From NCBI RefSeq assembly GCF_003334305.1, contig NZ_QOWS01000030.1: DNA of 41,498 nucleotides; one strand, 5' to 3'. Positions 17,619 through 22,662 of this stretch are shown here, one piece after another. Source of the DNA: Escherichia coli. GTDB taxonomy: Bacteria > Pseudomonadota > Gammaproteobacteria > Enterobacterales > Enterobacteriaceae. The first letter of the stretch is position 1. Every line of letters starts with the position of its first letter. Both the position numbers and the translations under genes were made by a program. A model generated the notes under the pieces. It was not told the origin of the DNA. It ran no database searches and saw nothing but the letters and a program-made list of their open reading frames with translations.

Positions 17619-17658
17619 GTGTTCTGTCCATCCTTCAGTAATCGTTATCTTTTAAACC

Positions 17659-17689
17659 GTAGACCGACACCCTATCCACGTCGGTCTAC
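17659..17689 (-). other. Stable stem-loop in the sucB-sucC intergenic region (possible mRNA processing or stability element)
   Basis: Perfect 10-bp inverted repeat GTAGACCGAC(17659..17668) / GTCGGTCTAC(17680..17689) with an 11-nt loop; no adjacent U-tract, so not a typical intrinsic terminator. Confidence 0.5.
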
Positions 17690-17711
17690 AGTGCAGGTGA
17701 AGCTTAAACTA

Positions 17712-18943: not shown

Positions 18944-21745
18944 TTATTCGACGTTCAGCGCGTCATTAACCAGATCTTGTTGCTGTTTCTGGTGAACGGA
19001 CATATACCCTACCGCCGGAGAGGCGGAGGCCGGGCGGCCTGCATAACGCAGAGAAGCCCCAAACGGAATCACTTCACGGAAATGATGCTGGCTGCAGTAC
19101 CATGCGCCCTGGTTGAGCGGCTCTTCCTGGCACCAGACAAAATCCTTGACGTGAGCAAACTGCTGCAACACTTCCTGCATCGCTTTATGCGGGAACGGGT
19201 AGAGTTGCTCGATACGCACAATGGCGACATCGTGTTGATTGTTCTTACGACGCTGTTCCAGCAGGTCGTAATAAACCTTACCAGAACACATCACTACGCG
19301 CTTCACGCCCTTCGGATCAAGCTCGTCGATTTCACCGATGGCTGGCAGGAAGGTGCCGTTCGCCAGTTCTTCGAGGCTGGAAACCGCCAGCGGATGACGC
19401 AGCAGGGATTTCGGCGACATCACGACCAGCGGACGACGCATCCCGCGCAGCGCCTGACGACGCAGCATGTGGTAAACCTGTGCCGGGGTAGACGGTACGC
19501 AAACCTGCATGTTTTGCTCAGCACAAAGTTGCAGATAACGTTCCAGACGCGCGGAGGAGTGCTCCGGCCCCTGCCCTTCGTAACCGTGCGGCAGCAACAT
19601 CACCAGACCACACATCCGGCCCCATTTCTGCTCGCCAGAGGAGATGAACTGGTCGATAACCACCTGCGCACCGTTGGCGAAGTCACCGAACTGCGCTTCC
19701 CAGATGGTCAGGGTGCGTGGTTCTGCGGTGGCATAACCGTATTCAAACGCCAGCACTGCTTCTTCAGACAGTACGGAGTCCCAAACACGGAACGCGCCCT
19801 GGCCGTTATGGATGTGTTGCAGCGGCGTGTAAGTGGAACCGTTAGACTGGTTGTGGATCACCGCGTGGCGGTGGAAGAAGGTACCGCGACCGGAGTCTTC
19901 ACCCGACAGGCGAACCGGAATGCCTTCGTCAACCAGCGTGGCGTAAGCGAGGTTTTCCGCGCCGCCCCAGTCGAACAGTTTCTCACCGGCAGCCATCGCC
20001 TGGCGATCGCCATAAATCTTGGCAACGCGAGACTGCATTTCAACCGCTTCCGGCACCGTGCTGATGCGTTTAGCCAGTTCCTGCAGGCGCTTCATCTCAA
20101 CTTTGTTCGGGTACTCTTCGTCCCATTCGTGGTTGAGGTACGGCGACCAGGTGAAAGAGTGCATGTTCATCGGACGCCACTCTGCTACCACGCAATCGCC
20201 AGCATCCAGCGCATCGCGGTACAGGTTAACCATCTCGGTGGCATCTTCCAGCGTCGCCACTTTTTCCTGCTCCAGCTTGTCAGCGTAGATTTTGCGCGGT
20301 GTCGGATGTTTTTTGATTTTCTGATACATCAGCGGCTGGGTTGCGCTCGGCTCGTCGGCTTCGTTGTGGCCGTGACGGCGGTAGCATACCAGGTCGATGA
20401 AGACATCACGTTTAAAGGTGTTACGGAAATCGAGCGCCAGACGGGTCACAAAGGCAACGGCTTCCGGATCGTCCGCGTTAACGTGGAAAATCGGTGCCTG
20501 AACCATCTTGCCGATATCAGTACAGTACGGCGTAGAACGGGCATCCAGCGGATTAGAGGTGGTGAAACCAACCTGGTTGTTGATAACGATACGTACCGTA
20601 CCGCCAACTTCATAACCACGCGCTTTCGACATGTTCAGGGTTTCCTGAACCACGCCCTGTCCGGTCACTGCGGCGTCACCGTGGATGGTAATTGGCAGCA
20701 CTTTGTTGCTGCTCGGCTCATCAAGTCTGTCCAGACGGGCACGAACAGAGCCGATAACGACCGGGCTTACAATCTCAAGGTGAGACGGGTTAAACGCCAG
20801 CGCCAGGTGCACCAGGCCGCCATCGGTCTGGAAGTCAGACGAGAAGCCCATGTGGTATTTCACGTCACCCGTGCCGAGGTGTTCTTTATGTTTACCGGCA
20901 AACTCGTCGAACAAGTCTTGCGGTTTTTTACCCAGCACGTTCACCAACACGTTCAGACGACCACGGTGCGCCATCCCGAGAACCACTTCCCGGGTGCCGC
21001 TGTTGCCAGCGTGGCGGATCATCTCTTTAAGCATCGGGATTAACGCGTCACCGCCTTCCAGCGAGAAGCGTTTTGCGCCAGGGAATTTTGCGCCGAGGTA
21101 ACGTTCAAGGCCTTCAGCGGCGGTCAGTTCGCTTAAGAAGCGTTTTTTCTCTTCGCTATTGAAAGTCGCGCGACCAGACTCGATACGCTGTTGGATCCAG
21201 CGTTTTTCTTCGGTGCTGGTAATGTGCATATACTCGGCACCAATCGGGCCGCAGTAGGTTTGCTTGAGGGCTTCCAGCAGCTCGCCGAGTTTCATGGTTT
21301 CTTTGCCGCTGGCAAATGAACCGACGTTGAAGGTCTCCTGGAAGTCTGCTTCGGTCAGATCGTGGAAAGACGGATCCAGATCGGCCACTTTATCTTGCTG
21401 CCACAGTCCCAGCGGATCGAGATTCGCATGCTGGTGACCACGGAAGCGGTATGCGTTAATGAGCTGCAGGACTTTAACCTGCTTTACATTGGTGTCAGGG
21501 TCGGAGATCGTTGAAGAGTAACGTGAAGCGTCTTTCGCCAGGCGGCGGAAATATTCACGCGTTTGAGAGTGGAATTGATCCGGTTTGACTCCCGTACCAG
21601 GTAACTGCTGGAACGTCGAACGCCAGTTAGCGTCAACCGAGTCAGGATCGGTTAAGAAGTCTTCATAGAGCTGTTCTATCCAGCTCTGGTTTGCGCCAGA
21701 GAGGTAAGAAGAGTCCAACCAGGCTTTCAAAGCGCTGTTCTGCAT
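18944..21745 (-). CDS. sucA: 2-oxoglutarate dehydrogenase E1 component, 933 aa
   Basis: ORF 18944..21745 minus; [50 protein letters not shown]... Confidence 0.97.
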
Positions 21746-21795
21746 CGTGATCCCTTAAGCATCTTTTTTATGCTTACTTCGCCGTGGATACTACC

Positions 21796-21933
21796 ACGCA
21801 CAGTTATGTGCGTGCCGGGGTTCACTTGCGAGCTCTTGTCTACGTAGTGGCTCGCGAAGGAACCTTTAAAAACTGTCTTAGTGTCAGGGGCAGTTTTTAA
21901 AGATTTCCTGAATAGCCGGGGGATTTCCCCGGC
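21796..21933 (-). promoter_or_regulatory. Cluster of at least three stem-loops in the sdhB-sucA intergenic region (the region of the reported internal suc promoter)
   Basis: Inverted repeats read from sequence: ACGCACA-gtta-TGTGCGT (21796..21813); CTTTAAAAACTG ... CAGTTTTTAAAG (21864..21902); GCCGGGG-gattt-CCCCGGC (21915..21933); plus a weaker CTTGCGAGC/GCTCGCGAAG pair at ~21824..21859. Confidence 0.5.
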
Positions 21934-21945
21934 ATCAACATTTAA

Positions 21946-22662
21946 TTACGCATTACGTTGCAACAACATCGACTTGATATGGCCGATGGCGCGCGTCGGG
22001 TTCAGCCCCTTCGGACATACACTGACGCAGTTCATGATGCTGTGACAGCGGAATACACTGAATGCATCGCTCAAACCGTCGAGGCGGCTGTCAGTCTCGG
22101 TATCACGGCTATCGATCAGGAAACGATATGCCGCTAACAAGCCTGCCGGGCCGATAAACTTATCGGGATTCCACCAGAAAGACGGACAAGAGGTTGAACA
22201 ACATGCGCAGAGAATACATTCATACAGCCCGTCGAGTTTTTCGCGCTGCTCTGGCATCTGTAAATGCTCGCGAGCTGGCGGATTTTGTCCATTATTCAAC
22301 AGGTAAGGCTTAATTTTCTCATATTGCGCATAGAATTGTCCCATGTCTACCACCAAATCGCGGATCACCGGTAAACCTGGCAGCGGGCGAATCACAATCT
22401 TCTTGCCCGGCTGGTTGAGTGCCGAAATCGGGGTAATACAGGCCAGACCATTCTTGCCGTTCATGTTCAGACCGTCGGAACCGCACACACCTTCACGGCA
22501 GGAGCGGCGGAACGACAGGCTGGGATCTTTCTCTTTCAGCTGGATAAGCGCATCCAGCAGCATCATGTCGCGACCTTCTTCCGCTTCCAGGGTGTAATCC
22601 TGCATACGCGGAGCATCATCAACATCCGGGTTATAGCGATAAATTGAAAACTCGAGTCTCAT
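21946..22662 (-). CDS. sdhB: Succinate dehydrogenase iron-sulfur subunit, 238 aa
   Basis: ORF 21946..22662 minus; MRLEFSIYRYNPDVDDAPRMQDYTLEA..., Cys clusters CREGVCGSDG and CILCACCSTSCP. Confidence 0.97.
   Translation of the reverse strand: MRLEFSIYRYNPDVDDAPRMQDYTLEAEEGRDMMLLDALIQLKEKDPSLSFRRSCREGVCGSDGLNMNGKNGLACITPISALNQPGKKIVIRPLPGLPVIRDLVVDMGQFYAQYEKIKPYLLNNGQNPPAREHLQMPEQREKLDGLYECILCACCSTSCPSFWWNPDKFIGPAGLLAAYRFLIDSRDTETDSRLDGLSDAFSVFRCHSIMNCVSVCPKGLNPTRAIGHIKSMLLQRNA

Follow-up and report, generated by a model that had tools for sequence, protein, structure and literature searches.

The sdhB-sucA spacer is a REP-free allele of a known leader

The DNA analysed here (hereafter the window) is a stretch of 41,498 nucleotides from an Escherichia coli contig (NZ_QOWS01000030.1, assembly GCF_003334305.1). 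It carries sdhB and sucA, separated by a spacer of exactly 200 nt (21746-21945) that is flanked by the sdhB stop codon (21946-21948) and the sucA ATG (21745-21743). Since both genes lie on the minus strand, the relevant strand of the spacer is also the minus strand. A 501-nt query holding the spacer had matches in all 5426 complete E. coli genomes, several of them at 100%, with a median of one place per genome, and the matching records carry the annotations sdhB and sucA. Judged from its sequence context, the spacer forms the intercistronic leader within the polycistronic mRNA of the minus-strand sdhCDAB-sucABCD operon.

The same locus and operon have been studied in K-12 (Cunningham & Guest 1998; Miyakoshi et al. 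2022, PMC9731577; Walling et al. 2022). Over the last 165 nt before the sucA start, which begin at CAGGAAAUC and hold the hairpins that we call H2 to H5, 164 nt agree with K-12 and the one SNP lies in the H4 loop. The K-12 spacer as a whole is 300 nt long and has three REP elements in place of the 36 nt that hold H1 in the window. The element in the window is a REP-free allele of the known sdhB-sucA leader and is neither a REP, nor an ERIC element, nor a canonical terminator. The coordinates of its features are collected in Table 1.

Table 1. Genes, hairpins and pairing segments at the sdhB-sucA junction of the window
Feature	Sequence	Position	Strand	Remarks
sdhB ORF		22662-21946	minus	
H1	GCCGGGG-AAAUC-CCCCGGC (DNA GCCGGGG/CCCCGGC)	21933-21915	minus	loop 5; begins 12 nt past the sdhB stop
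H2 extended	GGAAA(U)CUUUAAAAACUG / CAGUUUUUAAAGGUUCC	21908-21859	minus	about 17 bp, one bulged A, A/U-rich
H2 core	CTTTAAAAACTG/CAGTTTTTAAAG; RNA CUUUAAAAACUG-15 nt-CAGUUUUUAAAG	21902-21864	minus	12-bp perfect, loop 15
H3	outer GGUUC/GAACC, inner GCGAGC/GCUCGC	21864-21819	minus	imperfect
Predicted anti-Shine-Dalgarno segment	GUGAACCC	21818-21825	minus	overlaps 3' side of H3 outer stem
H4	CACGCACA-UAAC-UGUGCGUG (DNA CACGCACA/TGTGCGTG)	21814-21795	minus	loop 4
GlnZ seed target	UAUCCACGGCGAA	21790-21778	minus	single-stranded; core CCACGGC 21787-21781; between H4 and H5
H5	UAAGCAU-AAAAAAG-AUGCUUA (DNA TAAGCAT/ATGCTTA)	21776-21756	minus	loop 7; AAGGGAUCACG AUG directly next
Shine-Dalgarno, spacing, sucA start codon	AAGGGAUCACG AUG	21743-21756	minus	
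sucA ORF		21745-18944	minus	

Five hairpins fill the spacer

A search for perfect stems (7 bp or longer, loops of 3-20 nt) found four in the spacer (H1, H2, H4 and H5), against a mean of 0.15 in 2000 dinucleotide-preserving shuffles, none of which reached four perfect stems or a 12-bp stem. H3 is a further, imperfect hairpin. The original prediction of three stem-loops and a weaker fourth was therefore confirmed: the listed stems are real and H3 is the weaker fourth, but H5 had been missed and the H4 stem, given as ACGCACA/TGTGCGT, was one pair short. Folding of the minus-strand transcript, which had been proposed as a check, gave -71.2 kcal/mol for the whole spacer compared to -49.6 +/- 4.5 for the shuffles (z = -4.78), and the individual hairpins folded alone had z values between -3.3 and -4.3.

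H1 is a stable stem-loop with seven GC-rich pairs (-16 kcal/mol, z = -3.3). H2 (-18.4 kcal/mol) is part of the minimum free energy structure and gains one or two further apical pairs; no other helix in the window allele exceeds 12 bp. H3 reaches -18.5 kcal/mol (z = -4.0) and H4 -12.6 kcal/mol; H5, which abuts the Shine-Dalgarno sequence, is weaker at -5.7 kcal/mol (z = -3.4). The heptamer GGAAAUC occurs twice on the mRNA strand, at 21922-21928 (from the H1 stem into its loop) and at 21902-21908 (the 5' base of H2), which at 7 nt may be chance.

The hairpins are conserved and compensated in two families

We scanned one genome per species with the SucA N-terminus and obtained 80 loci from Enterobacteriaceae and Erwiniaceae, with spacers of 201-660 nt. 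For the alignment we used 76 distinct leaders, trimming any H2 apical insert of more than 24 nt and omitting three Citrobacter species whose insert lies further downstream. Across the 76 species, 94.8% of the cells of the five-hairpin structure pair, compared to 23-48% when the partners are slid by 1-3 columns. Both-side changes were found at 16 of the 38 pairs (3-7 when slid; 6.4 +/- 1.3 when shuffled, with 0/500 shuffles reaching the observed value), numbers that are to be read with the structure being derived from the window sequence, the species being related and the H2 tips being trimmed. The compensated pairs are spread over the H2 core (six), the H3 inner stem (two), H4 (six of its eight pairs) and H5 (two, e.g., UAAGCCU/AGGCUUA at locus L084); H5 is 98.5% paired. 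The H3 outer stem is 100% paired and never covaries. AAGGTTCC at the H2/H3 junction and AAGGGATCAC at position -11 are invariant in all 86 spacers tabulated, including 80/80 species loci.

Conservation together with changes on both sides of the stems argues that these are selected RNA structures and not the product of chance or of mobile repeats. The original prediction had staked itself on stems that are conserved and compensated across Enterobacteriaceae, and this is what we found. In addition, G.U cells by far outnumber C.A cells in H3 (42:8), H4 (82:18) and the H2 base (30:7), indicating that the mRNA strand is the selected strand for these helices. We conclude that the hairpins are real, selected RNA structures; regulation through the sucA leader itself has already been published for K-12.

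Two other approaches to the spacer gave less. RNAalifold on the 76-species alignment missed H2 and offered a long-range pairing of GA..YCU with AGG..UC, in which four of the five pairs are invariant and the fifth only alternates between C-G and U-G. We dropped this pairing because it shows no compensatory change. A scan with the 4227 models of Rfam 15 found nothing in the spacer at the gathering threshold, and at E <= 10 there were only two chance-level hits (E = 2.8 and 5.2). The Rfam sucA, sucA-II and sucC motifs precede suc genes in other proteobacteria and are candidates for cis-regulation. They are, like the leader described here, conserved structured RNAs upstream of sucA, but none of the models matches the window spacer.

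A second haplotype exists within E. coli (strains C7 and 23AR0151) and in E. albertii. Its H3 inner stem is GCGGAC/GUCCGC, with two compensated pairs relative to the window, and its H4 loop is longer while the H4 stem is kept. Both inner-stem types (GCGAGC/GCUCGC and GCGGAC/GUCCGC; 21828-21855) occur in E. coli and both recur across other genera, which suggests an old polymorphism or recombinational exchange.

Published K-12 data and their placement on the window

The sdh-suc operon is a cited example of an internal terminator with partial read-through combined with a secondary promoter (PMC4161252). Three RNase III sites lie upstream of the GlnZ pairing site in K-12 (Cunningham & Guest 1998, as cited in PMC9731577 and PMC5371410), and an rnc mutant has lower SucA, but not SucB, levels (PMC9731577). 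The suggestion that the density of stem-loops reflects partial termination or RNase processing is in line with this literature.

Transcript ends inside the spacer had likewise been anticipated, and K-12 3' ends do map there, though at REP elements absent from the window. Term-seq gave 3' ends at 758531 and 758707 (PMC7815308 supplement), full-length primary transcripts of sdhCDAB have their 3' ends at 758485 and 758531 (PMC6131387 supplement), and the rnc/wild-type coverage ratio peaks at 758515 (PMC5371410). Positions 758485 and 758531 lie at the bases of REP2 and REP3, and 758515 lies inside the third REP, in sequence that is missing from the window. Because these ends and the peak fall inside REPs, the K-12 maps are not directly transferable to the REP-free allele, and the published RNase III sites may be partly or wholly in the REP cluster and not in H2. 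The peak possibly reflects poor mapping of reads in repeats. On the other hand, H2 to H5 and the Shine-Dalgarno sequence are near-identical to K-12, so that what is documented for K-12, namely internal termination, processing by RNase III and repression by GlnZ/Hfq, should largely hold here as well. The remaining Term-seq end, 758707, corresponds to window position 21744, which places it 12 nt past H5 on the middle base of the sucA start codon.

Evidence for the weak internal suc promoter of the K-12 literature, with which the original prediction thought the stem-loops might overlap, was sought in three ways. A sigma-70 promoter would show -35 and -10 hexamers 16-18 nt apart and a mapped start site. 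A consensus scan of 21500-22200 had no match; by eye, TGgTAGTAT at 21796-21788 looks like an extended -10 element. No start site is given at 7584xx-7587xx in the Cappable-seq supplementary text or at 7585xx/7586xx in the SMRT-Cappable-seq text, both of which may be incomplete versions. A literature search on sucAp/Psuc returned nothing useful.

With Hfq, the small RNA GlnZ represses K-12 sucA by pairing in the sdhB-sucA spacer (PMC9731577), and its seed has been validated experimentally in K-12, with compensatory mutagenesis (Miyakoshi et al. 2022, PMC9731577). The target sequence in the window is the same as in K-12: UAUCCACGGCGA forms 10 Watson-Crick pairs and one G.U out of 12 with the GlnZ seed 5'-UUGCCGUGGAAA-3'. 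Its predicted probability of being unpaired is about 0.65, and it is kept in Enterobacteriaceae but not in Erwiniaceae. Repression of SucA by GlnZ is RNase III-dependent (bioRxiv 10.1101/2022.04.01.486790) and, according to PMC9731577, needs a 15-nt purine-rich element between the GlnZ site and the Shine-Dalgarno sequence, near the start region; on the window this element would overlap H5.

The spacer as a probable processed intercistronic leader

At the upstream end of the leader, H1 has no U-tract directly after its stem (the tail is UAUUCAGG), and a promoter/terminator consensus scan of 21500-22200 found no terminator-like site. H1 is therefore not a canonical terminator. Its homologues in Pantoea and Mangrovibacter are followed by a short UUUU run.

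H2 is the best candidate for the RNase III helix in the window allele, but its 17 pairs with one bulge are fewer than the approximately 22 bp (roughly two turns) that the enzyme accommodates (PMC6212723).

We consider it likely that the hairpins are parts of a processed intercistronic leader, with separate jobs that jointly uncouple sdh and suc expression after transcription. H1, as a weak terminator or a barrier to 3'-exonucleases, would mark and protect the sdh half at its 3' end, and would be the ancestral counterpart of the K-12 REP cluster in that job. RNase III would enter at H2 and cut read-through transcripts, parting the sdh half from the suc half. The processed suc mRNA would then carry H3 and H4 at its 5' end, and these would keep the GlnZ target single-stranded between H4 and H5, the latter abutting the Shine-Dalgarno sequence. 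GlnZ and Hfq would pair at CCACGGC and repress sucA translation, as published for the identical K-12 sequence. In this way the spacer would set the output of 2-oxoglutarate dehydrogenase relative to succinate dehydrogenase from one transcript, at the branch point of carbon and nitrogen metabolism.

The pdhR-aceE leader of E. coli is a comparable case: it is long and structured, belongs to a central-metabolism operon, is cut by RNase III and has a GlnZ target far upstream of the start codon (PMC9731577). It differs in its unrelated sequence, in having the RNase III site downstream of the GlnZ site, and in the opposite effect of rnc on the protein (PMC9731577). Beyond the K-12 literature, the present analysis shows selection on the hairpins over two families, outside any Rfam entry, and an apparently ancestral H1 allele carried by about one in three sequenced E. 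coli; it also locates insertion hot spots and puts forward the relay discussed below as a hypothesis.

A possible pairing relay at the sucA ribosome binding site

Several of the pairings in the leader are mutually exclusive. The H3 outer stem competes with the H2 base for the invariant AAGGUUCC, and a predicted helix between GUGAACCC and GGGAUCAC competes with the H3 outer stem for GAACC. Structure modelling raises the idea, which we regard as rather unlikely, that these pairings form a relay gating sucA translation, in the order H2 base (GGAAA.YC/GGUUCC), H3 outer stem (GGUUC/GAACC) and anti-Shine-Dalgarno helix (GUGA-CCC/GGG-UCAC). If RNase III cleavage, or transcription starting at an internal promoter, removed the 5' arm of H2, GGUUC would be freed, the H3 outer stem would close and the ribosome binding site would open.

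The invariance of AAGGTTCC and AAGGGATCAC everywhere examined, and of GTGAACCC nearly throughout Enterobacteriaceae, fits such a relay, as does the finding that the H2-base and H3-outer pairings, which have bases in common, are each 98-100% paired. In the thermodynamic model, the most probable partner of the Shine-Dalgarno G residues is, for 67 of the 76 species, the CCC within GUGAACCC; Erwiniaceae use another upstream segment, UGAAACC. The modelled probability that the Shine-Dalgarno sequence of the window is unpaired rises from 0.38 to 0.59 without the H2 5' arm, which would fit the lower SucA, with unaltered SucB, of the rnc mutant (PMC9731577). However, all three segments are invariant and hence do not covary, the anti-Shine-Dalgarno pairing included, as both of its sides are fixed; what speaks for the relay is thermodynamic prediction. 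Moreover, truncation at the H2 3' arm opens the Shine-Dalgarno sequence by more than 0.1 in only 31 of the 76 species, closes it in 10 and leaves the rest unchanged, and the accessibility of the AUG drops from 0.75 to 0.26 in the truncated window model.

In its wider form, the idea is that the leader is an unannotated RNA element found across Enterobacteriaceae and partly shared with Erwiniaceae, in which AAGGUUCC, GUGAACCC and GGGAUCAC would form the relay and RNase III or an sRNA with Hfq would switch the sucA ribosome binding site. We put this forward tentatively, with low confidence; the invariant segments make it a testable proposal.

The H2 core and the protein-dyad alternative

The original prediction had allowed that the A/T-rich 12-bp inverted repeat of the H2 core might instead be a protein-binding dyad in the DNA; IHF and Nac would be possible binders. 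The repeat is indeed A/T-rich and perfectly symmetric in the window strain. Cunningham and Guest are said to have reported in 1998 that IHF represses Psuc, which would count for a dyad. Nac, according to a citation in PMC9731577, binds the sucA promoter region. The mismatches in the H2 core point in the same direction: 62 of its 65 non-Watson-Crick cells are C.A, three are G.U and none is of another kind (21864-21902; alignment columns 10-21 with 46-57), so that the two arms are almost fully complementary as DNA or when read on the other strand. Against this, other species separate the two arms by 10-170 nt, with entire ERIC-like elements lodged between them, and in Pantoea and Erwinia the arms differ in sequence while their complementarity is kept. 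A search for the IHF consensus WATCAANNNNTTR with at most one mismatch found none in 21746-21945. The variable arm spacing makes a protein dyad very improbable, and we retain the processed RNA leader as the preferred reading of H2.

The C.A excess nevertheless means that H2, unlike H3 and H4, draws no support from the strand test. These C.A cells would read as G.U on the opposite strand. They occupy three alternative positions, and a given species rarely has more than one of them. This pattern could reflect selection for exactly one imperfection in the helix, or a constraint on the opposite strand.

Insertions in the leader

About 25 species (L028:911-1086; L016, L034, L044, L068, L076 and others) carry a palindromic insert of 120-170 nt in the H2 tip, which turns H2 into the base of a very long hairpin. 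The insert has a median of four unannotated intergenic matches per E. coli genome, at approximately 76% identity, and we take it to resemble the ERIC/IRU consensus. Further species have inserts of 45-105 nt at the same place. The H2 tip may be a tolerated landing site for ERIC-like elements. A second insertion point is seen in Citrobacter (L008, L027, L052), where an ERIC-like element with GGATGTAAGCTCCCGGGGATT lies right after UCCACGGCGAAA, between the GlnZ site and H5; its location agrees with the reported GlnZ site at -166 in Salmonella Typhimurium.

H1 and the REP-bearing alleles of E. coli

The H1 allele is present in 1750 of the 5426 complete E. coli genomes, whereas 68% of the genomes have REPs in the same spacer. 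These REP-bearing alleles have two to six REP units immediately past the sdhB stop, and spacers of 300 nt (K-12) or, in other alleles, 349, 361 and 455 nt. In strain SK0832 (L005) the spacer is 1796 nt long and contains an inserted transposase gene of IS1397, an element of the IS3 family. IS1397 targets REP units.

H1-like hairpins occur right behind sdhB in Citrobacter, S. arizonae, Erwinia, Pantoea and Mangrovibacter, with sequences such as GCCGGGGAA-GCGA-UUCCCCGGY (Citrobacter and S. arizonae) and CCGGGAACC-UCA-GGUUCCCGG (Pantoea). Species with short spacers have one GC hairpin of the H1 kind directly after sdhB, and others have REP-like or CCCUCUCC/GGAGAGGG elements at this place. The presence of H1-like hairpins in other genera suggests that the window allele is the old state and the K-12 REP cluster a replacement; on sequence comparison, the REP-free H1 allele is apparently ancestral.

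Spacers stabilised by REP or BIME elements, such as malE-malF, have a stable hairpin past the upstream cistron that sets differential mRNA stability or partial termination. Espeli and colleagues reportedly described BIME-associated attenuation in 2001. H1 likewise stands right after the upstream cistron, but it is a unique, single-copy hairpin (median one place per genome) and does not have the features of a REP unit (a dispersed, multi-copy palindrome of 35-40 nt with a GCCKGATG-type head). The REP-bearing and REP-free alleles constitute a natural experiment on the role of REPs in differential operon expression. That the hairpins are functionless relics of palindromic mobile repeats (REP/BIME, ERIC or other MITEs) might be argued from the REPs and the IS1397 copy in E. 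coli and from the ERIC-like inserts in the spacers of other species, but this is hardly tenable and we reject it, because the H1 segment, like the spacer query as a whole, is single copy, the hairpins are kept in position and compensated over two bacterial families, and mobile repeats insert between the hairpins or at their tips and do not compose them.

The spacer between sucB and sucC (17619-17711, minus strand) is 93 nt long in the window compared to 274 nt in K-12 (L087). In the window it contains an intact hairpin, GUAGACCGAC-11 nt-GUCGGUCUAC, in the tip of which K-12 has four REP units. The strain is thus REP-free at both intercistronic spacers examined. Elsewhere in the window, Rfam matched the CpoB/ybgF thermometer (142 bits; 1004-1142, minus strand) and a tRNA (5-77, minus strand), as expected for the tol-pal/ybgF neighbourhood.
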